A DNA stretch of 64,000 nucleotides from Bacteroidota bacterium (GTDB taxonomy: Bacteria; Bacteroidota; Bacteroidia; Chitinophagales; BACL12). The translations under genes and the position numbers were made by a program. Shown piece by piece: positions 7,921 to 63,983 of the stretch (position 1 is its first letter; the number at the start of each line of letters is the position of its first letter). Below the pieces are notes generated by a model that ran no database searches, was not told the DNA's origin, and saw nothing but the letters and a program-made list of their open reading frames with translations. The DNA is taken from assembly GCA_016706865.1 (NCBI GenBank), contig JADJIS010000002.1, positions 484,419 to 548,418 of the forward strand, in the 5' to 3' direction.

Positions 7921-8987
7921 GGATTGTTTTTAATTAGATCTTTTATCAAAGGAATAATTTTTTCAACCCCTTGTAATATGGGCAATAGCACAGGAATTTT
8001 TAATTCGTTTTCATATTGTCTTTGATAAGATATTGCTTCTTCTTCACTGCATAATTCTGTATTTAATGCAAGTGCGATCACCTTGGAGCCATACATATTT
8101 ATCAATGCAATTTCTGAGGATACATCAGGAATTTCTCCCCATGCAATATCATGTTCGTAATATTTTCTTTTTGGAGCATGTACTAATATTACGTTTTTCG
8201 CATTTCCCGATATTAATAATTCTGAACCGCAAGGTCCACTGGGATTCCGTAATGCGGATTGACCTTCTACTAATATTATTTCAGCCTTTGTTTCTTTCCA
8301 GCAGGAAACTATCGCATGTTCCAATTCGCCGGAAATAAAATCATTTAAGGTGGAATCAAAAATAAAACCGTATTTACCCCCCTGTAACCAACCTGTTTGA
8401 CCGGTATAGATCATTTGTGCATTAATATTATCCGCCTCACAGGCCTGACGAATAAGTCTGCATGTTGTGCGTTTACCCATGGCACAATCTGTTCCTATCA
8501 CCGCAATTATAGGTGCATCAACAGAATAAATTTCTCCGGTCCAAAAATGAAGGTCTTTTTTATTTTTTGGTTTTCGAACATCTATCAATTCCACCTGATA
8601 TTGTCTTGCCAATAAAACCAATTCAGGTATATCAGAAAGATATTCATGAAGGCCGTTTACAATATTCATTTTCTTGCTTATACAATCCTCCATAATTGGG
8701 TTAAAACTTTTTGGCAAAATTCCTCCAACCGTGGCTATACCGATTATGCAATAACGGATATCCGGTATCGACTCAAATGCAGTTTTTACTTCACTAAATA
8801 TTGGTATATTTCTTTTTTTGCCATCCAGCACCTCGCCTGCATCTTTTCCGGCATGAACGGCGTCAATTATTCCAACAATATCAAATCGTTCGCTGCCGCG
8901 AATTAAACCATGTGCAGTTTTCGCATCCGATTCGTGCAACATGCCGGCAGTTAATACTATGGCTTTGGGTTTGTTAATATTATTCAA
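7917..8987 (-). CDS. DUF1611 family protein (DgcN-like putative D-Glu N-acetyltransferase)
   Basis: 356 aa. The N-terminal pattern KAIVLTAG...AKTAHGLIRGSERF.IVGIID and the central GTDCAMGKRTT P-loop-like segment are typical of DUF1611. This family is usually paired with an enolase-type epimerase, as it is here. Confidence 0.7.
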   Translation of the reverse strand: MNNINKPKAIVLTAGMLHESDAKTAHGLIRGSERFDIVGIIDAVHAGKDAGEVLDGKKRNIPIFSEVKTAFESIPDIRYCIIGIATVGGILPKSFNPIMEDCISKKMNIVNGLHEYLSDIPELVLLARQYQVELIDVRKPKNKKDLHFWTGEIYSVDAPIIAVIGTDCAMGKRTTCRLIRQACEADNINAQMIYTGQTGWLQGGKYGFIFDSTLNDFISGELEHAIVSCWKETKAEIILVEGQSALRNPSGPCGSELLISGNAKNVILVHAPKRKYYEHDIAWGEIPDVSSEIALINMYGSKVIALALNTELCSEEEAISYQRQYENELKIPVLLPILQGVEKIIPLIKDLIKNNP

Positions 8988-9050: not shown

Positions 9051-11585
9051 CTAATCCGCTATCACCCTATCATATTCACCGGTCCTGCTTAAAAACTTTC
9101 CTGGAAATACATTGGTAAATTCTTTATCGCGATAAACCATTTTTCCATTCACCCATACCATTAATATGCCATCAGAAAGCGCTTTTGGATCTTCAATGTT
9201 TGCTTTGTCAATAACAGTTGCGGCATCAAACAAAACAAGATCTGCATAATATCCCGCGGCAATTATTCCACGTTCTTTTATTCCCACATTTTCAGCAGTT
9301 AATGCCGTCATTTTGTTGATACAATTTTCCAGGCTCATAATTTTTTGTTCGCGCACATAATATCCCAAAACCCGGGTAAATGCTCCATAACCTCGCGGAT
9401 GTCCGCCATTTGCTCCATCTGAACAAATATTCGTATGCGCCCAACTTAAAAATGGAATTATATCCGCATCGCTCATCGATTTACCCATGATAGTTTCTAT
9501 TCCATCTTCCTCAGGGTGCAATTTTTCATATTCTTCTGAAGCAGCAACTAAATACAATAAAGTTTGAGCAGCAGTTTCGTTGCGCAGTTTCGCAATTTCG
9601 GAAACCGTTTTTCCAACATATTCCTTATTAGGTTTAAATCGCACCATAACAGAACCTGTTGGATCAAATAAATGTTCCACCGCAAAATTTGCACCTTCTA
9701 TACTCGTGAAATCTTTTTTAGGAAAAAGCACCCGAACAGTGCTGTTCCAAAATGTATAGGGATAACAATCGGCAGTAATATTTATTCCTTCTGCACGTGC
9801 AGATTCTAATTTGGCGATAAGTGCCGGCGCAGTTCCCCAATCATCTTTTAATGCAATTTTAATATGAGAAATTTGAACGGGTAATTTTGCCTGTCGTCCT
9901 ATTTCAATTATTTCGTCGATGGCATCTGCCATGCTAATGTCTTCACTTCTTAAATGGCTGATATATTTTCCATTATATTCTGCGGCAACTTTCGCCAATT
10001 GTATAATTTCATCTCTGTTGGAATAAAATGCTGATTCATATTCTAATCCCGTTGATAAACCGAGAGAACCATTCTTCATTTCAAGCCTTAGAACATCTTT
10101 CATTGTATTTATCTCCTTTTGTGTTGCAGGCCTATTTAATTGGTCTTTGCCCATCACACTTTCACGAAGTGTGGAATGTCCTGTATAAGTTGCATAATTA
10201 ATAGCTGGTGAAAAATAACCTTTCATTGGATTAATATAATAACTATCTCCATCCTGCCCCGCTACAATAGTTGTTATACCCTGACTTAAAGCTGCAAGTG
10301 CATCCGGATGTTCTTTAAACGAACCTTCTAAATGACTATGACTATCGATAAATCCCGGTGCGAGAATTTTACCTCCGCCATCAATAACTTTTTCACCATC
10401 AAATTTTTTGAGATCGCCAACTGCCATTATTTTATCTTCTTCAATTCTTACAGAAGCATTTCGTGCAGGTGATCCTGTACCATCTATAACTTTTACATTT
10501 GTAATTAAAAACGTTTCCGGAATTGTAAATCGTTGTCCGTTAAATATATTTCTTGCAGTATAAGCACCTAAATGATTATCTCCACTACTCAATACAATAA
10601 GAGTGCGGTCGTTTTTAATATCTCTGCAGATCACATTTATAAATCCCGCCCAACCACCTGTATGTGAATATTGTTCGTTTGGTTTATCAATACCCCAACC
10701 AAATCCATAATTATATGTGGAACCATCCTTTAATTTAACAGGTTCAAATGCCTGTTGTAAGGTTTCTTTTTTTACGAGCTTTTCGGTCTTTAAACTTTGT
10801 TCCCATTTATACAGATCTTCTACGGAGGAATAAATATTTCCATCACCGGTAACACCATCTACATTGATCAGATCATTTAATTTCTTTACACCGTTAACTT
10901 CCGAAAATCCATATACATGATTGGTTGGCACTGCAGGCAATAATAAATGATAAACATAAGTGTCATTCAATCCTAACGGAGTCGCAATATTGTTTTTAAA
11001 AAAAATATTTAATGGTTGTTTTGTGATTCGTTCAATTATTGTAGCAAGAAAAACATAATTTGTATTACAATAACTCCAACTCGTTCCGGGAAGAAATTCT
11101 AATCGTGGAGAATAGGTGTTGTACGACTGAATCAATTTTTCATTGTTGAGTGTATCCAAAGTTTCCCGGTGGTTGTTATACAGATCAAAATATTCGGGAA
11201 TGCCTGAGGTATGGGTTAAAAGATTTCTAATTGTGATATCAACATAAGGTAATTCCGGAAGGTATTTTTTTATATTATCATCTAACGTCAGTTTCCCCTC
11301 TTCAGAAAGTATCAAAATACACATTCCGATAAATTGTTTTGAAACTGAAGCGAGGTTAAATGAGGAAGAGGTTTGTAAACTCTCCCCGGTTTTAATATCA
11401 GTCACCCCAAATGCTTTTTTATACAATACTTTGCCCTTAGAGGCATACAGCACCGTCCCGTTAAATCGATCAGTATTGTATAATTGGGTAAGAACACTAT
11501 CGAGTTGGTTTACATATGCGTTTCCCTGAGAAAAGCCTCGGGTAAAAATAAGGGTTAGAATAAATATGGAAAACAATTTTTTCAT
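9051..11585 (-). CDS. fusion protein: serine hydrolase (beta-lactamase/DD-peptidase fold) plus N-acyl-D-amino-acid deacylase (amidohydrolase)
   Basis: 844 aa with a signal peptide. The N-terminal half has SVSK (SxxK), YCN (YxN) and HTG motifs. The C-terminal half has GFIDSHSH and looks D-aminoacylase-like throughout. Confidence 0.8.
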   Translation of the reverse strand: MKKLFSIFILTLIFTRGFSQGNAYVNQLDSVLTQLYNTDRFNGTVLYASKGKVLYKKAFGVTDIKTGESLQTSSSFNLASVSKQFIGMCILILSEEGKLTLDDNIKKYLPELPYVDITIRNLLTHTSGIPEYFDLYNNHRETLDTLNNEKLIQSYNTYSPRLEFLPGTSWSYCNTNYVFLATIIERITKQPLNIFFKNNIATPLGLNDTYVYHLLLPAVPTNHVYGFSEVNGVKKLNDLINVDGVTGDGNIYSSVEDLYKWEQSLKTEKLVKKETLQQAFEPVKLKDGSTYNYGFGWGIDKPNEQYSHTGGWAGFINVICRDIKNDRTLIVLSSGDNHLGAYTARNIFNGQRFTIPETFLITNVKVIDGTGSPARNASVRIEEDKIMAVGDLKKFDGEKVIDGGGKILAPGFIDSHSHLEGSFKEHPDALAALSQGITTIVAGQDGDSYYINPMKGYFSPAINYATYTGHSTLRESVMGKDQLNRPATQKEINTMKDVLRLEMKNGSLGLSTGLEYESAFYSNRDEIIQLAKVAAEYNGKYISHLRSEDISMADAIDEIIEIGRQAKLPVQISHIKIALKDDWGTAPALIAKLESARAEGINITADCYPYTFWNSTVRVLFPKKDFTSIEGANFAVEHLFDPTGSVMVRFKPNKEYVGKTVSEIAKLRNETAAQTLLYLVAASEEYEKLHPEEDGIETIMGKSMSDADIIPFLSWAHTNICSDGANGGHPRGYGAFTRVLGYYVREQKIMSLENCINKMTALTAENVGIKERGIIAAGYYADLVLFDAATVIDKANIEDPKALSDGILMVWVNGKMVYRDKEFTNVFPGKFLSRTGEYDRVIAD

Positions 11586-11791
11586 ATACAGCTTGTTGTT
11601 CTGCGTTAAAGTTAGGATAATTTTTAATACCGGAAAATGAGCTTACCCAATACTTACCTGCTCATATCTTATTGGTTTTAAGTTTGTAGCTTTGATACAA
11701 AATGAAGTTCCCTGTCAAATGCTAATTATATGTATTTTTGACAAGCGCTTTATCTATAAAATATGGTTTCTTATTGAATTAAAAATCAAAT

Positions 11792-12391
11792 ATGGAAAAT
11801 TCAAATAGATCAATTCAAATTGTTGTGTTCTTGGTAATTACGATATTTTTTTCAGCTTGTTCGCCAAAAAAGAGCTCGGAAGAAATTAAAAAAACTGATA
11901 CCATTGTTCCGGCATCTCAGGCATCTGAGTCGGTAATAGGTTTTTTAACATGGTATAAAGTGCATATGATGGATCTAAATGCCTTTAAGCTGGTAACGAA
12001 TAATGGCAATGAAACCCCGGAACCGGATAAACCATATTCCGTTAATTTTTCAGAAACTGAAAAATATATTGCTGCACTAAAGGCCAGCGGATTTATTTCT
12101 GAAAAATATGTAGAAAATACCAGAGCATATTTTAAAAAATGGAATGATACACTAAAAGTGGAAAAACAATATGATGGTCCTCCTATGGGTTTTGATGCAG
12201 ATCTGATCATGTTGTCTCAGGATTTTGATCTAAATTTTCTGGATCAGGTGAAAATTAATACACATCCCGGCGGAACCTATAATGCACATGTAATGTTGGA
12301 ATTTCCTTACGGTTTGAAACTTGCGTATGCAATGAGTTTGGAAAATGGAAAATGGTTAATCGACGATATTCAGAATGTTTCTGAAAGATAA
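11792..12391 (+). CDS. lipoprotein, unknown function
   Basis: Lipobox FFSAC after a hydrophobic leader. 199 aa. Confidence 0.6.
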   Translation: MENSNRSIQIVVFLVITIFFSACSPKKSSEEIKKTDTIVPASQASESVIGFLTWYKVHMMDLNAFKLVTNNGNETPEPDKPYSVNFSETEKYIAALKASGFISEKYVENTRAYFKKWNDTLKVEKQYDGPPMGFDADLIMLSQDFDLNFLDQVKINTHPGGTYNAHVMLEFPYGLKLAYAMSLENGKWLIDDIQNVSER

Positions 12392-18283: not shown

Positions 18284-18312
18284 GGATTTAAATTTTTGGA
18301 ATAGTATTAAAA

Positions 18313-18352
18313 ATGTCCGAAGAGTTTTAATGAACTCTTCGGACATTTTTAA
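18313..18352 (+). terminator. intrinsic terminator
   Basis: Perfect 14-bp stem ATGTCCGAAGAGTT/AACTCTTCGGACAT, loop TTAATG, then a T-run. Confidence 0.85.
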
Positions 18353-18550
18353 TTTAAAATTTGGGTCAGTAGTAAAATTTGGGGAATGAATAATTATAGT
18401 TGATCTTTTTGTATGAAATTAAGACTTATTACCTTTATTTTTATTTGCACTCACTAACTCTCAATTTATTAATTGAATTAATTCATATTGTAGAGCTCAA
18501 ATTAAAATAAAGAATTTTGATCCTCAAAATTAGTTTACGGAGCAGAGGGC

Positions 18551-18812
18551 GGGCATCAGCAGGTGGCTTTAATGTCCCTTATGCGCCGCCACATCATAAC
18601 AAAAGCACCAATGTTAGCAGGATTTGAGCGAAAATAAGCGCCATCATATTGTAAAGTACTATTTTGATCTTAAATTAGATTTTAAATCGAATGATAAATC
18701 ACCAAATGAAAAGGCGCCTTTTTCGCTCCGGGTGGCAAGCATTAGGGACATTTAAGCCGCATGGTGAAGCCCTTGACTTTTGGCGCCACCTTTTGGTCAA
18801 ACAAAAGGTGGC
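18551..18812. other. GC-rich nested imperfect palindrome plus an 11-bp hairpin (candidate structured RNA or MITE)
   Basis: Outer 34-nt arms at 18551-18584 and 18739-18772. Inner arms at 18626-18642 and 18713-18728. Perfect hairpin GCCACCTTTTG/CAAAAGGTGGC at 18785-18812. It lies in a 680-bp gap with no ORF of 60 aa or more. Confidence 0.35.
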
Positions 18813-18965
18813 AAAACTGATGTAATTGCAATTAATCACTCGGAGCTGAATCTTGATTTCTTAATATTATAATGACCTTTATATGTCTAAAAATAATAAT
18901 GAAATTAATGTTACTCCCCAGAAATGAAGATGTCCCTAAATTATTCAAGATCAACACATTAGAAT

Positions 18966-38579: not shown

Positions 38580-38867
38580 AATATGCTGATTAGCGTTTAA
38601 CAGATTTCCGGATAGACAGCATAAAACTGTAAATCCATAATAAAATTACAAAAATTTATCTAATGGCAAATTATTTTGCGAATATCAATATCCGGTTATA
38701 ATAACTGTCCTATTAAAGTTTATTTTGTACTGGTTTTTTTTGTCGGATATTGGAAGTATTTACTATTCAAATTATTATGATAGTAGGAGGTAAAAAGTTA
38801 TTTTTAAATAGAAATACAAAATATATTAACCTTGAAATTATTTGTAAGGGCAGTTATCGTATTACAG

Positions 38868-39356
38868 TCATTCAATCTCCTCTTCTGTATTATCATTTGT
38901 TACTGCCTTGAAATTGTCAACAACCCATTGTTTCAATTCTGCATTTTTAAAGTCGAACCATTTTTGCCGGTAGTCCCCTGAGTTATCAATTACCCACTTA
39001 AATTCTCTGAAAGGTTTTCTTTTATTTAATGCCTTAAATAACTCAGATTTAAGTTCGTCGTTGCCTTCTAATTGATACGCGAAGTTTTCCATAATTTTAA
39101 AACTGTCGTTCGAATCCGGTTTGTCAATTTCGAAATAATCGTCAGGATTGTTATTTAATTTTTCGAGGTCTTCATCCTTTAGATCTTCATCAAAATCTGT
39201 ATAGTCCTCATTATTAAGAATGAAAAGAAGTTCACCGGTATGTTTGTGCCAATAACTCCGAAATCCGCAGTCAAGCATTTCTGCTATTTCTTTAATTTGT
39301 TCTTCTGTTAGGGACGCCATACTAGGTATAATTAGTCTGAAGGCTAAATTATACAT
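38868..39356 (-). CDS. UPF0158-like hypothetical protein
   Basis: The acidic protein starts either at 39356 (TAATG overlap with the upstream stop) or at the Met at 39320 (MASLTEEQIKEIAEML). Family assigned by pattern only. Confidence 0.5.
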   Translation of the reverse strand: MYNLAFRLIIPSMASLTEEQIKEIAEMLDCGFRSYWHKHTGELLFILNNEDYTDFDEDLKDEDLEKLNNNPDDYFEIDKPDSNDSFKIMENFAYQLEGNDELKSELFKALNKRKPFREFKWVIDNSGDYRQKWFDFKNAELKQWVVDNFKAVTNDNTEEEIE

Positions 39357-40000
39357 TATTTTTGGATTTCGCTTTTCATATCAAAAGTTATGGGTAAATT
39401 TTTGAGTCTATAATGTTCATCCAAAACGGATGCATTAATAAAATTCGTTTTTGACTCCGTAACTTGTCCATAAGCCTCATGTATATGCCCGCAAATATGA
39501 AACTTTGGGTTTATTTCCTGTACCTTTACTAATAGATCTTTGCAACCAACATTCTGCCCATCATTTGTTTTATCAAGTTTTCCAAAAACAGGTCCATGTG
39601 TGATCAATATGTCAATGTCTGCGGGAATTAAATCCCAATGTCTTTTAATTTGGTTACCCCGGGTTCGGTTAAAAGCCCAATCATAAAACCAGGGAGTAAC
39701 GGGTGAACCCCAAATTTTTATATTTTCTATCGTTATACCGCTGTCGCACAAATAAATAATATTGTCGGGAATTATTTTCTTAAACTCTTCTTCGGATTTC
39801 CGCTCAAAATAAAAATCGTGATTGCCTGCAATGAATATTTTATATTTAAAGTCAAGGTTTGTAAACCATTCTAAAAATTCAATTACAGCACTTTCCTCAC
39901 CGCGCCCACTTATATCTCCGGCATGGATAATTACGTCTCCTTGCGGGAGTTGTAATTTTTTATGCTGCCCGTGGGTGTCGGCGATTGTTATGAATTTCAT
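39356..40000 (-). CDS. metallophosphoesterase (calcineurin-like)
   Basis: Motifs ADTHG, GDISGRG, GNHD, THGP and GHIH appear in the canonical order. Confidence 0.85.
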   Translation of the reverse strand: MKFITIADTHGQHKKLQLPQGDVIIHAGDISGRGEESAVIEFLEWFTNLDFKYKIFIAGNHDFYFERKSEEEFKKIIPDNIIYLCDSGITIENIKIWGSPVTPWFYDWAFNRTRGNQIKRHWDLIPADIDILITHGPVFGKLDKTNDGQNVGCKDLLVKVQEINPKFHICGHIHEAYGQVTESKTNFINASVLDEHYRLKNLPITFDMKSEIQK

Positions 40001-40068
40001 TGTTGTTTGTATAGTAATGATTCTAAAGGTTTGGGCATTTATTATTTAAAATCATTAATATTGAAACT

Positions 40069-40344
40069 TCATTTATTTTTAACAACTGCTAATTCATTTT
40101 GCAGATTTTCAATTTTTTTCAATAAGTGAGCTATGGCATCTATTCCCTCAAGATTTATTTGAAGTTCAGTATGAAAATATATTAAACTTTCTAATGATTT
40201 TAAATGGTCTTCAATAATGTAAAAATCATTGCTTTCATCTATCAATTCTATGTGACCAAGCTCGTGAAGGGATTGAATGAAAGATACCTCCACATTAAAA
40301 TGAGTACAAACCTGTTCGATATGAATTAACTTACTTTTTTTCAT
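40069..40344 (-). CDS. cbpM: chaperone modulator CbpM (MerR-like)
   Basis: A 91-aa protein immediately downstream of a CbpA-type J protein and overlapping it by 14 nt. N-terminal HTH-like segment. Confidence 0.75.
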
Positions 40345-41227
40345 TGGTTCTTATTGTTTTTAATTTCGAAAACAATTCTTTTTCTTCTGTAGAAAGTTGG
40401 GTAGGTAGTTTAGTCTGATAAGTAATAAATAGATCTCCATAGGTATTTTCCTTTTTATATAGAGGGAAACCTTTTCCTTTTAACTTTACAGTTGTTCCTG
40501 GTTGGGTTTCCGGAGCCACTTTCAGTTTCACTTTTCCATCAAAAGTATTCACAACAATATCTCCTCCTAACAAAGCAGTATATAGATCTATTCCCTCATT
40601 TTTGTAAAGATTATTGCCTTCTCGTTTAAATTGCGAATCATTTTCAATTTTAAAGGTAATATACAAATCGCCATTTGGTCCCCCGTTAAAACCTGGTGAA
40701 CCATGTCCTGAAATTTTTATAGTCTGTCCATTTTCAATGCCAGCAGGAATTGTAATTCGAATCTTTTTATTGTTTATGGTTAGTTCTTGTTTTTGGGTTT
40801 TATATACATCGGATAACTTGAAATGCAGTTCTGCATTTAAATCTTGGCCCCTGAATTTTGTTTGATTATATTGACTTTCTTGTCCCCCGAACATCGACTC
40901 AAAAAAGTCGGAAAAATTACCGGTATCATCATTTCGAAATTGCTGACCAGTATTCCGCCGGGATTGTTTCTGTTGTTTTTTTTCTGTCTCGAAAGCATCG
41001 GCGTGCTTCCAATCTTTACCATATTGATCATATTTCTTCCGATTTTCTGCATTACTTAAAACTTCATTGGCCTCATTTATTTCCTTAAATTTCTTTTCTG
41101 CCTCTTTGTTGTTTGGATTTAGGTCGGGGTGATACTTACGCGCGAGTTTTCGATACGCCTTTTTAATATCCTCCTGTGTGGCATTTTTATTTAGTTCTAA
41201 TATTTTGTAATAATCTTTAAATTCCAT
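40331..41227 (-). CDS. cbpA: curved-DNA-binding J-domain protein CbpA
   Basis: J domain DYYKILE...[12 protein letters not shown]. No Cys-rich zinc-finger region. Two C-terminal DnaJ_C beta domains. Confidence 0.9.
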
Positions 41228-41418
41228 TATTTATTTAATTAATTTATTATTCCCGACTAGTGTTTGATCTGTTTTTTAAAACACTAAGTTACTGCAAATG
41301 TTAGTATGTTGTTCCTATTTATTTTATTGTACAAGCATCTAAATATAAATGCCTTCCAATATTCCGAAACGTCCTGCAGTTGTCTTTTGTCAGGTCGTTA
41401 CCGCATTTTAGTTTGTCA

Positions 41419-42075
41419 TTAGTAAATGGGGTCAAAACGCACACTTTGATGTGATATTACTTTCCCAGTTTTTGCATCTATATTGACAATTTCACTTTCG
41501 CCATAATCATCATTAAGTTCATTCTTTTTAATCCATAGAGTTTGACTTACCTCCAAAGAAAATGTTTTTGTTTTTTTGTCATAATTTATTGTCGCTTTAA
41601 GCGTGTCAATAGCTGGCTTTAAGTTTTGTCGTTTAGCAATTGTTAACGCCTCGTCTCTGTTGGTTAGTTGGCAACTATCGTTAGTCCAATAAAAGTCAGG
41701 GATAAAGTCAAAGTTGGCCTTTAGTGTCGGTCGTAATAAACTATCAAGGACGAATGATGTATTGCCCTTTATAGAGTCATAAGCTGAACAAGTTGGATAA
41801 GGAATAATTACATTCCAACGTACATCTACTTTTACAAATTTGCCTTTTGTCTTTTTAAATCTATTTAATGTCTCCCAATGCGGTTTTCCAAAAATGTCTC
41901 TGTATTCATAATATGTGTTAGCATCATAAAAGCAATTATTTGAAAAAACAATGTCGCCAATGTAAGTAATTAAAATGCTATCTGATTTAGCTCTAATCTC
42001 CGCAGTCAAATATTTTTGTCCTCAGACTGTTGTCACTGTATAAAACGTCAAAAGAAAAAAAGTCAGTTGTTTCAT
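41419..42075 (-). pseudogene. secreted hypothetical protein interrupted by an in-frame TGA after codon 17
   Basis: The ATG at 42075 encodes MKQLTFFLLTFYTVTTV. A TGA follows at 42024-42022, and the same frame then continues into the 196-aa ORF 41419-42009. Confidence 0.55.
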
Positions 42076-42093
42076 AGTTGTTTGCAATTGCTT

Positions 42094-42222
42094 GTAACGT
42101 TCGTGTAGCAGATTTGCGATAGCGGGGAAGGTAATCGAAAATCTTTAATAAAAATACAAAATTTTAATTATTGAAAACTATTTTAAGGAGTGGTGGTATT
42201 TTCAGAACAATCGGACTTGTTG
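42094..42222 (-). repeat. attC-like intergenic repeat, copy A (diverged)
   Basis: Shares about 70 nt at roughly 85% identity with copy B (CAGATTTGC..GGGGAAGGyAATCGAAAATCwTTAATAAAAATAC). GTAAC at 42094-42098. The distal arm is degenerate and overlaps the stop codon at 42225. Confidence 0.4.
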
Positions 42223-42224
42223 TA

Positions 42225-42668
42225 TCAGCTATCGCCCTTCGTTCTCGCTACTATTTTTCTTCGTTTTATCAACTTATAAATTGGCACAAATACAAAAGCC
42301 TGTATGATAGTCATTAATGCAGCATACTCTAGCCATTCCACTAAAAGTTTCTGTTTGCCATGATTAGTATAGTGATGTATTGAGCCGACCTCACTAAAAA
42401 ATTGGAAAATACCCCATCCAATAAGAAATACAGGGAATCCAACAATTAATGAGTTTACTACTTTAACGTCTACACCAATAATCCTCTTGTAGGTTTTGAT
42501 AAAAAAATGGAATATGAAAAATAGCAAAATGAAATAAGTGAATATAGCCAAATAGCTAATGAGGTTTGCCAACAATATATTAAATGAAAGAGCAAGGCCA
42601 CAAATGAGACCATATAGAATTATGAACTTTAGTGTTTTGTTGGTTTTAATTTTATTTTCGGTTGGCAT
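42225..42668 (-). CDS. small integral membrane protein (about 4 TM)
   Basis: 147 aa and hydrophobic. GTTAGC (minus strand) lies 7 nt upstream of the ATG. Confidence 0.55.
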   Translation of the reverse strand: MPTENKIKTNKTLKFIILYGLICGLALSFNILLANLISYLAIFTYFILLFFIFHFFIKTYKRIIGVDVKVVNSLIVGFPVFLIGWGIFQFFSEVGSIHHYTNHGKQKLLVEWLEYAALMTIIQAFVFVPIYKLIKRRKIVARTKGDS

Positions 42669-42708
42669 AAATTTGAGCTAACATTGTGTCTTTTTCACCT
42701 GCAGATTA

Positions 42709-43473
42709 CTAATCGTAAAAATTTTCCCAGTTATTAGGCGTAGGATCTGTTAGCTTAAAAATAGTTTTTTCTCTAGCGGTAAGTCCGCTATAATATTTAT
42801 TAAACTGCAATAAATAATCAGCTCCTATCCTGGTTCGCCAAAACAAATCGTGTTTGTTATTGTGCGGGAACTTGTTCCAAGGTGTTTGATGTGTGTATTC
42901 AAGTGGTTTGAAATGTCCAAAATATTTTAGGAAATCTCGAACTTCCATAAGAACAAAACCGAGTAAATTAAGCCCGGGCCAAGCATAAATATTGTCAATA
43001 TCCTTAATGTACTGAGAAAGTCCAATGCCCCATATATTGTCAACGGGACTTGCTTCAATTAATACTCTGTCACCTGTTTTTATTAAATAGTCAGCAAGTT
43101 TTGGATTTTGATTGAACTTGTGAATATTTCCAATCTTTACAATTTCAAATCGTTTGTTATTCCAGGTTTGTTCGTCAAAACCTAAAACTTGTCTGCCCAA
43201 TTCTTTTGCTTCTCCGGGACTTTCAGCCGCCAAAATTTTTTCAAAGTTGGCCTTGTCGTCAAAGAGAAGTGCTTTTTGCGACATCATCCAATGCTCAGTA
43301 GTTTTATAAGTTCTGTTGTCAACTGTGAAGGGACTCTCAAACCATTGACTAAAACAAAATTTGCCGACATCAACATTCAATTTATTGGTATGTCCCCAAA
43401 AGTAAATATACTTCAAAGTGTCTCCTCTTTCAAAGCTGTCAATCAACCATTTTATGTTGTAGTGTTTTGTCAA
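42709..43473 (-). CDS. NADAR (DUF1768/YbiA-like) family protein
   Basis: The pattern FSQWF.SPF.VD...Y.T.EHWMM..KALLF.D......I....SP.EAK.LGR.V.GFD...W......IV..GN..KF.QN..L...L..TG...L.EASP.D.IWGIG is seen. The only in-frame start is a TTG. Confidence 0.75.
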   Translation of the reverse strand: MTKHYNIKWLIDSFERGDTLKYIYFWGHTNKLNVDVGKFCFSQWFESPFTVDNRTYKTTEHWMMSQKALLFDDKANFEKILAAESPGEAKELGRQVLGFDEQTWNNKRFEIVKIGNIHKFNQNPKLADYLIKTGDRVLIEASPVDNIWGIGLSQYIKDIDNIYAWPGLNLLGFVLMEVRDFLKYFGHFKPLEYTHQTPWNKFPHNNKHDLFWRTRIGADYLLQFNKYYSGLTAREKTIFKLTDPTPNNWENFYD

Positions 43474-43526
43474 GTTATAGATTTAATTTTGGATTGGGAG
43501 TGATGTAAAATAAAAGCCAATAATGC

Positions 43527-43647
43527 GCTACAGATTTGCAATTGAGGGGAAGGCAATCGAAAATCATTAATAAAAATACGAAGTTTTGGGTTACCGAAAA
43601 TTATTCGGAGGTGGTCGTCGCCCCGATGGCGCAAATGTGCTGTTAGC
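43527..43647 (-). repeat. attC-like intergenic repeat, copy B
   Basis: On the minus strand it reads GCTAAC-agcac-ATTTGC-gccatc-GGGG ... CCCC-tcaatt-GCAAAT-CTG-TAGC. This is an imperfect palindrome with unpaired bases, starting 20 nt after the stop at 43667. Confidence 0.45.
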
Positions 43648-43666
43648 AGTAGGCTGTTCAGATGGT

Positions 43667-44362
43667 TTAAAAATCATCCTTATTAAATGTCAAGTCGTTA
43701 ATTGTTCTATTTTGTTCTGTTGAAAAGTAGCAATTTTTTCCGTTTTTATAAATTCCAAAGCATGAATTGTCGAGCCATTTACAATTCTTGGCATAATGAT
43801 AATTGCTGTCAAACCAATACCAATTATTTTTTTCGAGAAGTACTTTTGTAATTGTCGAATCTCTTGTCTTTATTACTACAGATAATTTAGATTTTTCTTC
43901 GGTTTTTGCTAAAATTATTTGTCCTACGTGTTTTCTGTCTTTTGATTTTTTTTCGGGATAATGTTTTTCAAACTTAAAGTCGCTTTCGATAATATGTTTG
44001 TAGGCGGTATTAAAAGCAGATTTGTCCCAACTATAAATGTCTGCAATTTCTATAACTGTTGTATGTAAAATTTCTAGAATGTATTTATATTTTTCTTTTT
44101 TAGAAAGACTTAAATATTTATTTTCATCAATAACACTGCCGTAACTGCAAATTGAACCAAAGTAATTTGGTTTGGCCCAGTTGTTTGTAGCGCCAAGGTG
44201 AAAGCATATTCTTCCAGTCTTTGTAGGTTTAAAACCGTTTAAGCTATCGTGATAAAAGTCAGCGATGTAATTTACTTTTCGTCTAAAGTCCCAGTCTTGT
44301 GGGGCGTCCTTAATAACGGTTCCGTGGTAATAAATTGTTATGTCGTTAAGGGGTGCTCCCAT
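43667..44362 (-). CDS. hypothetical protein
   Basis: 231 aa with an ATG start 27 nt downstream of the GTTAGC end of repeat C. No motif recognised. Confidence 0.55.
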   Translation of the reverse strand: MGAPLNDITIYYHGTVIKDAPQDWDFRRKVNYIADFYHDSLNGFKPTKTGRICFHLGATNNWAKPNYFGSICSYGSVIDENKYLSLSKKEKYKYILEILHTTVIEIADIYSWDKSAFNTAYKHIIESDFKFEKHYPEKKSKDRKHVGQIILAKTEEKSKLSVVIKTRDSTITKVLLEKNNWYWFDSNYHYAKNCKWLDNSCFGIYKNGKNCYFSTEQNRTINDLTFNKDDF

Positions 44363-44388
44363 GTCACGATTTGTTTTTTAAACTTACT

Positions 44389-44518
44389 GCTAACGTTTCG
44401 GGCTTTGCGAAGTGGCGGCATTCGAAGCGAAATCATTCATGATCACTAAAATCATCAAATGAAAATAAAAGTTTCAGGTTTACGATTCACCAAGCCATTT
44501 TGCAAAGCTTTTGTTAGC
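44389..44518 (-). repeat. attC-like intergenic repeat, copy C (best-formed)
   Basis: GCTAAC (44389-44394) and GCTTTGC (44402-44408) pair with GCAAAGC (44502-44508) and GTTAGC (44513-44518). The spacers are unequal (7 nt versus 4 nt). Total length 130 bp. Confidence 0.5.
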
Positions 44519-44558
44519 GGATGTGCTGACATGAGGTCGAATGTCCCAACCATCAGGT

Positions 44559-45449
44559 TCAATTTATAAATATTTTTTTTGTAAATTGTTTTTTGCCACC
44601 CATAATTTTCACAATATAATAGCCGAGTGAATAGTCCTCCAATGATACTTTATTTGTGGTTTCTATTAAAATATTGGTATAAATAATTTTACCATTTAAA
44701 TCAGTGATGAACATTTCGTAATTATGCTTTAAAGTTTCTATATTAACAAACACGTCATTATTGAAACTATAAATATTTACACCTGCCAATGTATTCTCCA
44801 TAATGTCAACCGTAATGGTATCACCGATTGTGTCACCTGCTAAAATTGCTACATCACATTTAGTTTCATACGCAAAATCCTTTATGATTAAAGTATCACC
44901 TTTACTTTTTACATCACAGCGAATCCATCCATAATGATTGCATCCTTTATCGTCGATAAATCGCACACCTATATAATGATCTATTTTTTGAGGATACCAA
45001 AAGCCTCTATCAATAATAGCTACACCATCTTCATTTAAGACCCTAGCTGCAAGCACCTGATAAAAATCATTTTGAAAATTTAATTCTTCATATACTAAAT
45101 CATTAACTAAAAGAGCATAAGGGTAATATAAAGTAAATCCACCATATGAAGGATCAATTACTACACTTAATCCTGCAATGGCATTATTGGAAATTTGAGG
45201 GGATGCATGCATGTAAAAGAAGTACAAATACTCTTCACTCCAATAAGTATATCCGGTACCGGTAAATTTTAAGAATGCAAAATCATACGTTCCATTGTTA
45301 TCCATGTCTAATCTAAAAACTTCAAGGTTGTCATTTACGACAGTATCCGGATCGATATTGGTGTAAACGGCTGCGGCATCAGCTTCCTTGAAAAAAAGGA
45401 AGCTGATTGCCATAGCTGAATATTGAACTAATTTATTCTCGGTTGCCAT
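44559..45449 (-). CDS. T9SS C-terminal sorting-domain protein, unknown function
   Basis: 296 aa. The C-terminal roughly 80 aa (VNIYSF...LNGKIIY...GYYIVKI) resemble a Por secretion tail. The start lies 2 nt after the upstream gene's stop. Confidence 0.6.
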   Translation of the reverse strand: MATENKLVQYSAMAISFLFFKEADAAAVYTNIDPDTVVNDNLEVFRLDMDNNGTYDFAFLKFTGTGYTYWSEEYLYFFYMHASPQISNNAIAGLSVVIDPSYGGFTLYYPYALLVNDLVYEELNFQNDFYQVLAARVLNEDGVAIIDRGFWYPQKIDHYIGVRFIDDKGCNHYGWIRCDVKSKGDTLIIKDFAYETKCDVAILAGDTIGDTITVDIMENTLAGVNIYSFNNDVFVNIETLKHNYEMFITDLNGKIIYTNILIETTNKVSLEDYSLGYYIVKIMGGKKQFTKKIFIN

Positions 45450-45451
45450 TT

Positions 45452-48049
45452 CTATTGTTTTACAAATTGTTTGTTCAAAATAAGGCCATTCGATAGCTCA
45501 ATTGTGAGGGAATAAAACCCTGCACTCATTGCGGAAATATCAATTGCATCATTATTTTGCATACTGTTATTATAACATACCGAACCCATCATATTTATAA
45601 TTTTCACGTTAAAGTTACTCATTTCCGTGAAATCTTTTCCATTTACAGTAATATGCAAGAAGGCGCTTGCTGGGTTTGGATACACATTTACACTAAATGC
45701 AGGTTTCTTTATTTTTTCATAGGGAGGGTAGTCGGCTTTGATAGGTACTTTTATATAACCGAAAGAATAGGGTGGAACCTCAATATGATACAATACATTA
45801 TCTGTGCAACAATTTTGAATGGTGTCAATCGTTGTTATTTCAATCGGGTAGGGCACATCATTAACATTATTGTAACATTCATTTAGTGTGAAGAGCGTAT
45901 TTTTACCTTTTCCGGCAGTGGAATAGGGTTTTAGTGCAGTTACACAATAAATAGTTGCAGTGTCTGAAACATATAACAAACCGTCCGGTGGGTAAATACC
46001 TGTTGTACCTGCAATATTCAAATTATGTTTTTGAGCGTCTTCTGTTACATTGGTAAAATAGATATAAAAATTTTCTTTTTCCGGGTCTATGAATACAGTT
46101 GGTTGCACATTCGGATTGTTTTTTGCAATTACAAAATTGCTCTGCAGATATTTTAAATCCTTTTTTGTTATTTCGCTTAGCAGTTGCATTACATAAAATG
46201 TTGAACGCTTCATATAATAATTACGAAAAGCTGCAGAATCCGGATCATTAATGCTATAAGGTGAAATATATTTCCCGAGCCAAACCAGTTCAGGGTCCGA
46301 TGCAGGGCTCATGATTGGGTTACTGCCCCCACCGGCAAAATTGTGCAAATGCGCGTATTTGAAAAAATTGCTTCGGTAATTTCCATTAAAATTAATTTTT
46401 AAGTTTTTCAACCACCATTCTTGCAACATTGTACAATGGATAAAGGATTGTGCAAATACACCAATTTGATTTACTTTTGTTGAATTGTAATTTCCTTGAT
46501 CTTTTAAATTATATTCAGAGGTAATTACATCCTTACCACCTTCAGCTAACGAAAGATTTAAACCTAAATGTGTTTTATGCTCATCCCACGATTCCAAATA
46601 CCGGGATTTAATAAAATCTTTAAAGTTACGGGTGATACCGTCAAAGGTTGCTTCTAATCTTTCATCATAAATATCGTATCGCCAACCATCATTAGTTGAA
46701 ATTGTATCACCTAAGTTGCAGGAGTAAGTTGTTTCTAAATGATCAAATGGTATGGAGTCATAATTATGTCCATCATAATACGGGTGAATTGCATAAGCAT
46801 CGAAAGATTTCCGAAAATGGCCCGGCCATCCGGTAATTTCCACTTTTTCCATTCGTTTTGTAAATAAGCTGTCGTTCCAATCGGAATAATTTACAACACC
46901 TGCAATTTTACCGGCAGCTTGCAATGCAAAGGTTGTGTCATGAATATTTTCAGCAGGTAGTGCTATTTTACAGGAACCTGTCAATGGTTTTTTGAAAGCT
47001 GAAATATAATCATGGTCCAACCAAACATCGGTGCCAATTAAAACACTGTCGAGGCTATCGGTAATACCTCCGTTTATATAGATCCAATAATCTTCCAACG
47101 AATAAATACCGAGCATAGTTTCGGAAAACTCATAATACATTTCATTACCGAGTTCAACATAGGTCACATTTACATCGTGTATTGAATTTCCGTTTGCGAG
47201 TGGTGTACCTTTTAAATAATCAACGATCCGTTTGCATTCAGTTGCAGTTTCATTCATAATATTCAGGTCAACTACCACCTCTACACTTTGTCCTGAATTT
47301 TCTGTTTCAATCTTTTTTATCATTTCGATAAAATCATCAATATATCGGTGTGTGCTGTCCAGTAATTGTTGCTCAAGATAGCTGTTACCAAAACTTTTAA
47401 AGTCATCAATTTCTGTTGAATCCATCCATGCTTTATAGAAGTTTGCTGAAGCGTCAGCTTCCAAACTATCTATTATTACAATAAATTCAGGTGCATTATC
47501 ACTGTAATCAGTCCTGTCATAAAATCGTATTATTTCTTCTAACACATATCCATAACCGGGGCCTTGCAATAAATGCATAAATTTACTGTCGGCGCCACCG
47601 GGAAAACGCAAACTTTTTGGTGCGAAATTGCTCATCCAATTCCATTGATCAAGTGCAGAGCTGTCGTTTGGAATTTGTTTTCTGCCAAAAATACCGGCAA
47701 CATGAAAACCATTCAAACCTTGATTAACTGTTTTCTGAACGCTTCCAAAATTGATATAAATTGTAGAATCCCCTTTGATTTTTGCATATTGATTATTATT
47801 GTTTGAATAAGCATTATTATTAATTCCCGATATAGTTCTTAAATTAATTTCCGGTTCTGTTTCGGTGATACCATCCTCCCAGTACCAAACTGTATCCAAT
47901 CCGTCGGCTAAAGTTTCTTCGATAATTCCAGTGGTGTCAAAAATTTCTTCATCAGGAAAATATTGTGCTTTCGTTTGAAGATGGGAAGTAAGGATTGCTA
48001 TAAGTATAACAGCTGTCCGAACATTTTTTGGAGTAGTAATATTTTTCAT
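45452..48049 (-). CDS. secreted T9SS-sorted protein, possible clan GH-A-like glycoside hydrolase
   Basis: 865 aa with a signal peptide. YVELGNEMY is an NE acid/base-like motif in a TIM-barrel-sized region (inference only). C-terminal VNVYPNPASAFLHITV...GFYSLTI is a Por tail. Confidence 0.5.
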   Translation of the reverse strand: MKNITTPKNVRTAVILIAILTSHLQTKAQYFPDEEIFDTTGIIEETLADGLDTVWYWEDGITETEPEINLRTISGINNNAYSNNNNQYAKIKGDSTIYINFGSVQKTVNQGLNGFHVAGIFGRKQIPNDSSALDQWNWMSNFAPKSLRFPGGADSKFMHLLQGPGYGYVLEEIIRFYDRTDYSDNAPEFIVIIDSLEADASANFYKAWMDSTEIDDFKSFGNSYLEQQLLDSTHRYIDDFIEMIKKIETENSGQSVEVVVDLNIMNETATECKRIVDYLKGTPLANGNSIHDVNVTYVELGNEMYYEFSETMLGIYSLEDYWIYINGGITDSLDSVLIGTDVWLDHDYISAFKKPLTGSCKIALPAENIHDTTFALQAAGKIAGVVNYSDWNDSLFTKRMEKVEITGWPGHFRKSFDAYAIHPYYDGHNYDSIPFDHLETTYSCNLGDTISTNDGWRYDIYDERLEATFDGITRNFKDFIKSRYLESWDEHKTHLGLNLSLAEGGKDVITSEYNLKDQGNYNSTKVNQIGVFAQSFIHCTMLQEWWLKNLKINFNGNYRSNFFKYAHLHNFAGGGSNPIMSPASDPELVWLGKYISPYSINDPDSAAFRNYYMKRSTFYVMQLLSEITKKDLKYLQSNFVIAKNNPNVQPTVFIDPEKENFYIYFTNVTEDAQKHNLNIAGTTGIYPPDGLLYVSDTATIYCVTALKPYSTAGKGKNTLFTLNECYNNVNDVPYPIEITTIDTIQNCCTDNVLYHIEVPPYSFGYIKVPIKADYPPYEKIKKPAFSVNVYPNPASAFLHITVNGKDFTEMSNFNVKIINMMGSVCYNNSMQNNDAIDISAMSAGFYSLTIELSNGLILNKQFVKQ

Positions 48050-48318
48050 TTTAACTAATTTGTGGTTAATTTATTCAATAGTAATGATGTAAGAAATGAG
48101 CGCATAGGTTTTTACACCTACGAACTATCAAAGAAGTCTATGGATAAGATATTTTTATGGTTGAAGTGTTCCGTAGGCATATACGCTAACTAGTTTATTG
48201 GAGAAGTTTCCTCCCAATAAACTTCTCCAACCCTTCCAAAATGGCAGGATAGGAGAATAACCAATATTCAAATCTACCTATTATTTCTAACTTTAAAATT
48301 AATGAAATCTTTCACTCA

Positions 48319-60023: not shown

Positions 60024-60183
60024 AACCCAGAACCCAGAACCCAGAACCCAGAACTCAGAACCCAGAACCCAGAACTCAGAACCCAGAACTCAGAACCCAG
60101 AACCCAGAACCCAGAACCCAGAACTCAGAACCCAGAACCCAGAACCCAGAACTCAGAACTCAGAACTCAGAACCCCGAACTCA
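60024..60183. repeat. 22 perfect-register heptamers (AACCCAG x14, AACTCAG x7, AACCCCG x1) plus a partial unit
   Basis: Counted unit by unit from 60024 to 60177 with no indels. The final partial unit aacTCA supplies the complement of the vWA gene's TGA stop codon (60181-60183). Confidence 0.95.
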
Positions 60184-63906: not shown

Positions 63907-63983
63907 TAGGACGTAGGACATAGGACGTAGGACGTAGGACATAGGACATAGGACATAGGACATAGGACATAGGACATAGGACT
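63907..63983. repeat. 11 tandem heptamers (TAGGACA/TAGGACG)
   Basis: Counted from 63907 to 63983 in perfect register. Same unit as the tracts at 716 and 2155. Starts 11 nt upstream of the ATG at 63896. Confidence 0.95.

Follow-up and report, generated by a model that had tools for sequence, protein, structure and literature searches.

The minus-strand locus that runs from an attI-like site (48191-48262) to about position 41290 of the window (the whole 64-kb stretch of DNA analysed here) is a real gene-cassette array, integron-like and built by site-specific recombination. It very probably forms the chromosomal array of a gene-capture system of Bacteroidota that resembles the integron. The first-pass annotation had proposed an integron-like array with no recombinase in view, and this idea stands, as do its four minus-strand ORFs (43667-44362, 42709-43473, 42225-42668 and 41419-42075) and its three repeats (44389-44518, 43527-43647 and 42094-42222). 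Several of its details do not, nor does the label of CALIN. The array is twice as long as was stated and starts at the attI-like site, which had gone unnoticed, and the T9SS genes taken for a flank are its first cassette. The array is laid out as follows:

48191 to 48262, minus strand: attI-like site, adjoining the crossover GTTA
48187 to 48190, minus strand: crossover core GTTA (attI followed by GTTAGCGTATATG...), where five left-hand sequences meet one right-hand sequence
44521 to 48186, minus strand: cassette 1, between the attI crossover and site C
43653 to 44387, minus strand: cassette 2, encoding a 231-aa protein of unknown function (43667-44362)
42709 to 43473, minus strand: NADAR-domain gene (Pfam PF08719, E 1e-51), relic cassette 3
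42225 to 42668, minus strand: gene of a 147-aa membrane protein, relic cassette
41419 to 42075, minus strand: gene of a secreted PepSY-like protein with one in-frame TGA, last relic cassette

In the window, the attI-like site and the first two cassettes, with site C between them, are intact. The sites of the older cassettes (NADAR, 147 aa and PepSY-like pseudogene) have decayed, and these cassettes are in effect fixed. The attI-like site holds two direct copies and one inverted copy of TTCTCC(T/A)AT (TTGGAGAAG..CTTCTCCAA) and terminates in ...AATAAACTA immediately ahead of the crossover. Cassette 1 encodes two T9SS-sorted proteins with Por_Secre_tail domains, of 865 aa (45452-48049) and 296 aa (44559-45449), and the 231-aa protein of cassette 2 has homologues in other genomes, in unrelated contexts. 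Among the relics, the TTG once regarded as the only possible start of the NADAR gene has an alternative, a downstream ATG used by other gene callers (giving 245 aa), and a Pfam search matched no family to the 147-aa membrane protein. The single TGA that had been seen to break the secreted protein is there, and the identical 196-aa truncated ORF is called in 10 of 10 strain loci.

Cassettes are gained and lost between strains at a single GTTA crossover. Within the species, five differing left-hand sequences abut one identical junction (...GTTAGCGTATATG), whose right-hand side is constant (GTTAGCGTATATGCC...), and in other strains cassettes are inserted directly to the right of the attI-like site. 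The left side can be the attI-like site itself (the window and loci L002, L003, L006 and L007), attI plus a 290-nt cassette devoid of ORFs (L001), a C-type site closing an extra HxlR+DsbA cassette (L004 and eight similar places; left boundary ..AAAAC, then GTTAGCGG), a second C-type site (L005) or a B-type site (L008); one contig begins at CGTTAGCG. In a second species, strains with an identical recombinase (P0092) differ by whole cassettes exactly at attI: the attI/GTTA junction is followed, depending on the strain, by nothing extra, by a 5.2-kb module (HTH, two methyltransferases and a 587-aa protein) or by a 1.3-kb T9SS gene, and ..AAACC, then GTTATCGGTAACTC, comes next in every variant. 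The sequences are mostly MAG or metagenome assemblies, yet identical junction variants are seen repeatedly in assemblies of independent origin (NCBI, ENA, JGI and Logan). The gain and loss that the first-pass annotation had suggested looking for is thus found at the attI-proximal end, whereas the four ORFs that it had flagged (231 aa, NADAR, 147 aa, secreted) are syntenic and invariant across all ten strain loci. It is barely credible that the hairpins between the genes are only terminators or leader elements and that ordinary homologous recombination within a variable region made the strains differ. Each element does lie in the gap that separates a stop codon from the following start codon, but the junctions sit at a single 4-nt core, on one side of which the sequences are unrelated; the stems are not followed by a T run; and neither the complementarity rule nor the association with a recombinase and an attI-like site (see below) would be explained.

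The sites of the array and its surroundings are as follows:

44388 to 44520, minus strand: site C, the sole intact attC-like hairpin site of the window
43526 to 43652, minus strand: site B, a B-type hairpin site with R'' and L boxes intact and R' destroyed
42092 to 42229, minus strand: site A, a decayed B-type site with a conserved 3' half (..CCCCGCTATCGCAAATCTGCTACACGAAC, then GTTACAA) and a degenerate 5' half
42675 to 42756, minus strand: weak site, tentative and probably decayed (AAGCTAAC ... GTTAGCTC)
41288 to 41339, minus strand: terminal relic, tentative, read directly from the sequence
38588 to 38701, minus strand: relic D, a decayed B-type copy (nhmmer E 0.007 and alignment)

The three repeats had been described as related. 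Sites A and B are homologous (88% identity across 57 nt; nhmmer E 3e-10 and 3e-8 over about 90 nt), whereas site C has no detectable sequence similarity to them (nhmmer E 2.9 to 11) and shares their architecture alone. The right end of site B, previously read as CTG-TAGC within an attC-like layout, lacks GTT: it has lost 8 nt (CAAAACGT) relative to intact relatives, of which one is L017:2185-2306 (nhmmer E 3e-28), and intact B-type 3' ends read GCAAATCTGCAAAAC, then GTTAGCG, in L004 and L008. The weak site overlaps the 3' end of the NADAR gene and has complementary R boxes and a poor L stem. In the terminal relic, GCTTGTACAA is a near-complement of the cassette start GTTACAAGC, and a remnant of a B-type 5' arm (CTAACATTTGC) is also present. 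Relic D, with its R' mutated to GCTAATC, lies downstream of a cbpA-cbpM-phosphoesterase-UPF0158 block, and whether it is part of the array is uncertain.

Site C consists of R'' CCGCTAAC, an 18-bp L stem and R' GTTAGCA. The boxes reported earlier (GCTAAC..GCTTTGC ... GCAAAGC..GTTAGC) are present and fold as a long hairpin; the layout is not that of a textbook attC, since the spacers are of 4 and 7 nt and the stem of 16-18 bp has no extrahelical base. The stem pairs at 16 of 16 positions, four of the pairs being A.C on the top strand and G.T on the bottom. The folding check proposed at first pass thus came out in part: the more stable fold is that of the bottom strand (-21.8 kcal/mol, z -3.0, on the plus strand of the window; the top strand reaches -16.2), and the conserved extrahelical bases are absent from site C. 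These features bear on whether the locus is a classical CALIN, in which canonical attC sites are clustered and either remain from a true IntI or are served by one in trans. Site C does show AAC/GTT R boxes, a bottom-strand G right after AAC, R pairing that reaches 9-16 nt, a preference for the bottom strand and a variable centre, all of which are features of attC (PMC2727003). Against this, a scan of the window for canonical geometry (spacers of 5 nt and of 5/6 nt, with a bulge of 1 nt that follows 3 bp) gave 10 matches versus 7.1 in shuffles, with none at A, B or C, and all the reference attC sites that we extracted have the canonical geometry that site C lacks. The search with attC models suggested earlier gave no support: two models, which are weak for long sites, found nothing at A-C and missed the intact sites of relatives, including one of 66 nt. 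Moreover, complete integrons are almost unknown in Bacteroidota, and the recombinase beside homologous sites is devoid of the IntI insertion. We regard a classical CALIN as very unlikely.

The reading as an integron-like capture system gains from complementarity within cassettes. An intact cassette opens with the reverse complement of the R'' carried by its own 3' site, in leading runs of 7-10 nt. Over the 12 positions from 5 to 16, starts match their own R'' at 8.2 of them, whereas non-own pairs match at 3.4. In the window, the start of cassette 1 (GTTAGCG) pairs with the R'' of site C (CGCTAAC) at 12 of 16 positions, and the start of cassette 2, GTTAGCAGTA, matches the R'' of site B, TACTGCTAAC, in reverse complement without a mismatch (10/10). 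Two further cases match at 13/16 and 12/16 and the one in L125 at 9/9; the cassette of L001 that has no ORF matches at 7/16, with a doubtful assignment of its R''. The hairpin itself is backed by covariation, and the bottom strand is favoured. Six sites of this species and of Olivibacter, i.e., of two orders, share a hairpin of 23 pairs, 12 of them compensatory, in which 91.9% of cells are paired (38-51% in slid controls; 0 of 500 shuffles matched the observed values) and two G.U pairs on the bottom strand never vary. Of the two strands, the bottom one is more stable in 5/5 sites, and A.C mismatches outnumber G.T pairs on the top strand by 11 to 2. A site scanner applied to 1.1 Mb of Bacteroidota loci retrieved 18 sites, 17 of them in such arrays and all on the strand bearing most cassette genes.

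Repeats that are palindromic, intergenic and grouped in families (A/B/D and C-type), at which contigs frequently break, could also be dispersed non-autonomous elements (MITE, REP/BIME or palindrome-associated of the IS200/IS605 type) that landed between genes by chance, and L128-L132 have a Y1-transposase-like gene at a distance of 4 kb from the recombinase. We find this extremely unlikely. The inserting unit is a whole gene module (0.3-5.2 kb) with one site, not the repeat; the first 9-16 nt of the module are complementary to its own site, which is not expected of a MITE; and target-site duplications are absent. Furthermore, the remaining 58 kb of the window hold no copies, and a scan of 185,579 species genomes with the A/B core returned one true relative and 11 chance-like single matches.

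As reported at first pass, the window has no recombinase: tblastn with IntI1 and three Xer-like recombinases gave no match in its 64 kb, and dsbD adjoins the platform where relatives have the recombinase. In these relatives, including Olivibacter sitiensis, a Xer-like tyrosine recombinase gene precedes the hairpin-site cassettes (L017, L121, L123, L125 and L128-L132), with an attI-like site in between in all of these loci except L121. The motif of the window's attI-like site also occurs 3' of the recombinase gene in L017, and similarly laid-out sites are found in L123, L125 and L128-L132; in Olivibacter, the recombinase gene and the first ORF are 45 nt apart, and no attI/GTTA junction is recognisable in that interval. 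The gene is co-directional with the cassettes and has attI at its 3' end. It encodes a "simple" tyrosine recombinase with an N-terminal extension of about 80 residues, best matched by the XerA model. Proteins P0139 and P0054 pass NF040815 (230 bits, cut-off 220), fail the integron-integrase model TIGR02249 (198-202 bits, cut-off 265) and have no IntI-specific insertion (about 41 residues in IntI1). Since the recombinase that accompanies these sites in relatives is no IntI, describing the locus as the CALIN of a classical integron is unjustified.

Acinetobacter plasmids carry pdif modules, which are mobile, Xer-dependent and have 28-bp cores. That housekeeping XerC/XerD similarly move the present modules at double-stranded Xer/dif-like sites is very unlikely. 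The scores of the recombinase with the XerD and XerC models do fall only a little short of its score with the IntI model, but the sites are hairpins of 60-135 nt rather than 28-bp cores, their strands are not equivalent (invariant G.U pairs, a 3-4 nt bulge on one arm alone), and the arrays are headed by a dedicated recombinase gene and an attI-like site.

In the integron-like system that we propose, a cassette comprises at least one gene and then an imperfect palindrome of 60-135 nt, made of an outer R stem (..TAAC / GTTA..), 3-4 unpaired bases on a single arm, an L stem of about 18 bp and a variable centre. Cassettes are joined head to tail at the GTTA core, so that the first 9-16 nt of a cassette pair with its own 3' R'' once it is excised as a circle. 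The attI-like site is the entry point for new cassettes, placed in relatives directly 3' of the gene of the Xer-like recombinase (NCBIfam NF040815). Recombinases of this family would catalyse cassette recombination, and in the present genome a copy presumably acts in trans. By analogy with integrons, and given the folding thermodynamics, the hairpin site probably acts as a folded single strand (bottom). The non-standard sites and their Xer-like partner point to a largely overlooked gene-capture system in Bacteroidota, of which we found no published description.

The array resembles sedentary chromosomal integrons and CALINs in many respects: head-to-tail cassettes with a conserved GTT core; an imperfectly palindromic 3' site built of R and L stems around a variable centre; a bottom-strand G after AAC and a better-folding bottom strand; an R' whose distal half belongs to the next cassette; insertion at an attI-like site beside a tyrosine recombinase gene; decay of the sites farther from attI; and varied cargo, among it secreted proteins and, in a relative, a module with methyltransferases that may be of restriction-modification type. 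It differs from them in its recombinase, which has the N-terminal extension of about 80 residues, lacks the IntI insertion and belongs to NF040815 instead of TIGR02249, and in its sites, with a one-sided bulge of 3-4 nt by the R stem where attC has an unpaired 5 x 5-6 spacer, and without canonical extrahelical bases. In addition, the recombinase gene of relatives is co-directional with the cassettes, with attI at its 3' end, and the array of the window has no adjoining recombinase. In Treponema denticola-type integrons, the integrase gene is also in cassette orientation, and the recombinase gene, attI and cassettes all point in one direction as here; those integrons have a true IntI and canonical attC sites, unlike the present system. 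Xer systems (archaeal XerA, XerC/D, pdif) share with it a simple tyrosine recombinase, nearest to the XerA model, but here the sites fold into long, strand-asymmetric hairpins, and the recombinase goes with a cassette platform and not with the resolution of chromosome dimers. Finally, IS200/IS605 elements and their palindrome-associated derivatives are hairpin-dependent, use an HUH transposase and have hairpins at both ends. They are alike in their hairpins, in the probable use of ssDNA and in inserting beside a short fixed sequence with no target duplication, whereas here the unit has neither hairpins at both ends nor an HUH transposase, and each module has a single composite site that is split by the crossover.

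Four consecutive minus-strand ORFs are separated by non-coding elements of 120-135 nt. They and the repeats are arranged as follows:

38588-38701, site D, a weak fourth copy of the A/B type found by nhmmer and alignment
41419-42075, minus strand, ORF of a secreted PepSY-like protein, a pseudogene with its frame broken by one TGA
42092-42229, site A
42225-42668, minus strand, ORF of a 147-aa membrane protein
42709-43473, minus strand, ORF of a NADAR protein
43526-43652, site B
43667-44362, minus strand, ORF of a 231-aa protein
44388-44520, site C

A, B and C stand where the first-pass annotation had placed them. Its claim that A and B are kin also holds, since the two are homologous, but the identity amounts to 88% across 57 nt rather than about 85% across some 70 nt; similarity is significant over ~90 nt (nhmmer E 3e-10 and 3e-8). 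C has no detectable sequence similarity to A or B (nhmmer E 2.9 to 11) and is a long imperfect hairpin with the arms GCTAAC/GTTAGC and GCTTTGC/GCAAAGC. No further copies were found in the remaining 58 kb of the window, and Rfam gave no match at the repeats with either E-value or gathering thresholds. In most assemblies, gene callers annotate a 32-aa ORF within C (44412-44510; positions 9810-9908 of strain locus L002), which is probably spurious.

The same 231-aa protein sequence recurs on many contigs of a single species (a Chitinophagales MAG), and in all of these the four ORFs and their repeats are invariant. An invariant, syntenic locus had been named as evidence against a cassette array; the invariance extends to these ORFs and repeats, but the attI-proximal end varies by strain. 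Repeat profile searches of every fetched locus revealed extra members of the family upstream of the 865-aa T9SS gene in some strains. We aligned the 400 nt upstream of this gene in the window and ten strain loci. The right-hand side of the junction is constant in all of them (GTTAGCGTATATGCC...). The left side is, in the window and four loci, a structured non-coding sequence ending ..CTTCTCCAATAAA(C/T)TA; in locus L001, the same structured sequence followed by a 290-nt ORF-less insert that starts GTTATATGC and ends ..CGGAAC; in L004, a C-type hairpin closing a 1.4-kb HxlR+DsbA module, which itself starts at GTTAGCGG after a crossover preceded by ..GCAAATCTGCAAAAC; in L005, another C-type hairpin; and in L008, a B-type hairpin. 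The contig of L009 begins at CGTTAGCG. Five unrelated left sequences are joined to one right sequence, and the joint is invariably GTTA. This pattern is the footprint of site-specific recombination. The fixed junction implies that the two T9SS genes (865 and 296 aa) are the first cassette of the array (cassette 1, 44521-48186) and that 48191-48262 is an attI-like entry site. The latter carries repeated recombinase-type motifs and ends ..A(A/T)A(A/C)nnA immediately before GTTA.

A metagenome scan anchored on CbpA returned only relatives at 75% identity or less, without synteny, and was of no help in comparing the locus. Locus L005 (positions 9084-11888, about window 39356) has a 2.8-kb insertion with four small ORFs; it separates the metallophosphoesterase and UPF0158 genes, which overlap in the window. 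Because no hairpin sites flank it, this is a different kind of polymorphism.

In integrons, the crossover splits the site, which leaves the distal half of a cassette's own R' at the start of that cassette (R' and R'' being the outer stem arms of a site). Cassette 2, which encodes the 231-aa protein (43653-44387), starts with GTTAGCAGTA and is complementary to the R'' of its 3' site B, TACTGCTAAC, at 10 of 10 positions. Likewise, the start of cassette 1, GTTAGCG, is complementary to CGCTAAC of C. Among nine cassettes from five loci, positions 5-16 agree with the reverse complement of their own R'' at 8.2 of 12 positions, against 3.4 of 12 for non-own pairs, and three additional cassettes match their own R'' at 13/16, 12/16 and 9/9. 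The integron-type rule holds here, and such complementarity is not expected from a dispersed repeat or a terminator. The first-pass annotation had itself allowed for a dispersed REP- or MITE-type element. We rejected this reading: the copies in the window are confined to one cluster, and the inserted units are whole gene modules. We also considered whether the conserved A/B block is a Bacteroidota promoter; inspection showed no -33/-7 motif at the proper spacing.

The intact sites share a structure of their own. We aligned the bottom strands of six sites of equal length, three of this species and three of Olivibacter sitiensis, a member of another order. The span from TAAC to GTTA is 125-126 nt in each, and the consensus begins with an R stem of 5 bp (TAACG/TGTTA), continues with four bases left unpaired on the 5' arm alone and ends in an 18-bp stem. 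Compensatory changes occur in 12 of the 23 pairs, and 91.9% of cells are paired; sliding the partner columns lowers this to 38-51%, and the observed values were not reached in any of 500 shuffles. Two pairs are G.U in all six bottom-strand sequences, which makes them A.C mismatches on the top strand, where A.C mismatches outnumber G.T pairs by 11 to 2. In line with these invariant pairs, folding gave the bottom strand the greater stability in each of the five sites folded. Across 1.1 Mb of Bacteroidota sequence from the fetched loci, a scanner for this geometry found 18 sites, 17 of them in such arrays and all on the strand bearing most cassette genes. Site C fits the description (TAAC/GTTA R stem, one-sided bulge of 3-4 nt, L or inner stem of ~18 bp), and cassettes 1 and 2 fit the part on starts complementary to their own R''.

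Within the window, C alone passes the geometry scanner; B, A, D and two other relics agree only partly with the description of a hairpin site complementary to its cassette start. The R boxes of C carry AAC/GTT (CGCTAAC and GTTAGCA), a feature also present at the attI junction. A retains the GTT, B has lost it by an 8-nt deletion and in D it is mutated. The array displays an age gradient, in which the intact members are the attI-like site, cassettes 1 and 2 and site C; B lacks 8 nt of R', A lacks its 5' half, two further sites are barely recognisable, and the last cassette gene is a pseudogene. This is consistent with the confinement of strain differences to the attI-proximal end. Between the terminal relic and D lies a cbpA-cbpM-phosphoesterase-UPF0158 block (38588-41227), and upstream of cbpA stands GGGAATAATAA, which bears a faint resemblance to the complement of D's R'' (TTATTATAAC); the block may be an old, fixed cassette.

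Are these sites attC sites? In attC, the central spacers are unpaired (~5 and 5-6 nt), and two or three bases of the L stem are extrahelical: a G in L'' and, 6-8 nt beyond it, a T (PMC2727003). For a classical CALIN, the IntegronFinder covariance model for attC must call at least two sites within 4 kb, in a region that lacks a nearby intI. Our reference set comprised 16 genuine attC sites of five class 1 integron arrays, taken from plasmid records. All have the same order of parts: an R'' of 7 nt, a spacer of 5 nt, three base pairs, a single-base bulge, at least 6 bp, then a spacer of 5-6 nt and R'. Most of them, including those of 86-128 nt, were recovered by a rule-based scan for this canonical geometry. 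In the window it gave 10 matches, where shuffles gave 7.1, and no match fell at A, B or C. C was found only when the spacers were relaxed to 4/7 nt and no bulge was required. What had been described as its textbook attC layout is therefore not one: the spacers are 4 and 7 nt, and the stem of 16-18 bp is uninterrupted, with no extrahelical base. The right end of B lacks GTT, and the left half of A does not pair. The six aligned sites carry a 4-nt one-sided bulge in place of the canonical spacers and extrahelical bases, and the canonical descriptor found none of the intact new-type sites, a 66-nt one included. Two surrogate covariance models, R1 built from 10 real class 1 attC sites and R2 from a structure-only descriptor, gave no match at A, B or C, a weak result given that both are also blind to long genuine attC. 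They recover the training-derived sites and the unseen blaDIM site, miss the long attC of arr-3, qnrVC4, dfrA14 and OXA-4, and detect the 71-nt estX site barely or not at all; because estX and all long attC are missed, they are no substitute for IntegronFinder. By these criteria, A, B and C are not canonical attC sites. The window also encodes no integron integrase (IntI with its additional domain) and, as the first-pass annotation had observed, no tyrosine recombinase (tblastn with IntI1 and three Xer-like recombinases). Filing the array as a classical CALIN is unwarranted because two defining features, extrahelical-base and spacer geometry and an IntI with the additional domain, are lacking. 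The idea of an integron-like array was right in kind; its extent, the layout of the sites and the choice of functional copies needed revision.

The relatives of the array are headed by a recombinase. Scanning a genome collection with the A/B core yielded 11 chance-like matches and one true relative, locus L017, which nhmmer recognised. Homologues of its recombinase exceed 7,700 at E < 1e-30 in public data, many of them on short contigs, which is what breakage of assemblies within such arrays would produce. Each of the four homologues that we looked up heads an array, as the recombinase of L017 itself does:

L017, another Bacteroidota MAG: tyrosine recombinase gene, attI-like sequence, 455-aa ORF and intact B-type site, in this order
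P0139, Olivibacter sitiensis: three intact sites, after a 359-aa ORF, a DinB gene and a 92-aa ORF; no attI-like site could be recognised
P0054, JGI MAG: attI-like site and a duplicated 95-aa cassette
P0160: attI-like site next, then a T9SS cassette with a 66-nt site
P0092: population series with recombinase and attI identical in all strains

The attI-like sequence of L017 reads ..TTGGAGAAGTTT..AAACTTCTCCAATAAACTA up to the crossover and GTTATGGGC after it, and the R'' of its B-type site, GCCCATAAC, complements the start of its cassette, the 455-aa ORF. Between this sequence and the window attI-like site, near-identity covers the 47 nt that precede the crossover; over the 110 aligned nt, identity is 62%. 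In the window, no recombinase of this type adjoins the attI-like site; in this species, dsbD occupies the place held by the recombinase in L017. Analogous attI-like sites occur in loci L123, L125 and L128-L132 of other genomes. Directly at the attI/GTTA junction, some P0092 strains have no extra sequence; others have a 5.2-kb module (HTH, two methyltransferases and a 587-aa protein), and others again a 1.3-kb T9SS gene. Every insert is closed by a hairpin site of its own, beyond which come, invariably, ..AAACC and, across the crossover, GTTATCGGTAACTC. Variable cassette content between strains, insertion at attI and the G/TT crossover are thus found in two species. The accessory genes include T9SS cargo and redox proteins and, in a relative, the methyltransferase module, possibly a restriction-modification system. 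Two other features were seen near the recombinases of relatives: in L123 (9600-9830), a ~30-nt unit (..ACGTACGGCACAACCTTTCAA..) is repeated in tandem about ten times just upstream of the gene, and in the species of L128-L132 (2385-2933), a Y1-transposase-like gene (weak PF01797 match) precedes the array recombinase by 4 kb in every strain.

The recombinases pass the NCBIfam model NF040815, named 'site-specific tyrosine recombinase/integron integrase' (230 bits, cut-off 220), and fail the integron-integrase model TIGR02249 (198-202 bits in two stretches, cut-off 265). They lack the ~41-residue insertion of IntI1 and have an N-terminal extension of ~80 residues, the evident candidate for a substitute of that insertion. 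[quoted passage not shown]

The system most likely works like an integron. A tyrosine recombinase would join the folded hairpin site of a circular cassette, probably as the bottom strand, to the attI-like site, and the same enzyme would excise cassettes between two hairpin sites, with strand exchange in the GTTA core. The excised circle of cassette 1 would carry the junction of ..CCCGAAAC with GTTAGCGTATATG, and the emptied site would read attI followed by GTTAGCAGTAAG. The array-linked recombinase family is the probable catalyst, and the substrate is probably single-stranded; the window array would be served by a copy of the recombinase elsewhere in the genome or in donor DNA.

The 231-aa protein belongs to a rare family of 41 homologues, and comparison of contexts shows that the gene moves between genomes; no clear hairpin sites were found around the homologues in other contexts. 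In Hymenobacter amundsenii (NIRR01000021.1; positions 7900-8730 of locus L025), the homologue stands alone between ruvB and queG, an AT-rich gene in an otherwise GC-rich genome, and no hairpin site accompanies it. In locus L028 (2400-16691), it is found among at least 17 co-oriented small ORFs of unknown function, with heterogeneous intergenic hairpins, several ending ..GCAAAGCC..AAAC(C)GTTA; the scanners called none of these as sites. The window has other repeats, apparently all between ORFs of at least 100 aa: heptamer tandem arrays (AACCCAG x22, 60024-60180; TAGGACA x11, 63907-63982; GACACGA x7.6, 3146-3198) and 104/182-nt tandem repeats near its start (791-1422). A further 680 nt without an ORF of at least 100 aa (18284-18965) include GC-rich, apparently structured segments and a GTTAGCAGGATTTGAGCG motif similar to the B-type 3' arm; this stretch has no Rfam or tRNA match and only a weak match to the repeat profile (nhmmer E 0.006).

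Integrons are the model system for rapid gene capture by bacteria, and the IntI-specific domain is thought to be essential for the recognition of folded attC sites. Complete integrons are reported to be nearly absent from Bacteroidota (IntegronFinder 2.0 preprint; 'clades previously found without any integrons'), and integrons as such are described as missing from this phylum or very rare in it. A full-text search, with most subscription journals outside its coverage, found no published description of recombinase-linked cassette arrays of such kind in Bacteroidota. We lean towards the view that Bacteroidota carry a widespread class of integrons with a Xer-like integrase devoid of the IntI domain, in which a one-sided bulge by the R stem and conserved bottom-strand wobble pairs replace the extrahelical bases, and that current finders miss it, leaving thousands of platforms in a phylum seemingly almost free of integrons. 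The finding leads to something of greater interest than the array initially proposed. An integron-like system without the IntI domain would change the known phylogenetic range of cassette-based gene capture, the view of what the recombination of folded single-stranded sites requires, and the tracking of accessory genes in environmental and wastewater Bacteroidota. The integron is the closest known system, and the window array differs from it in the geometry of its sites and in the recombinase of its relatives.
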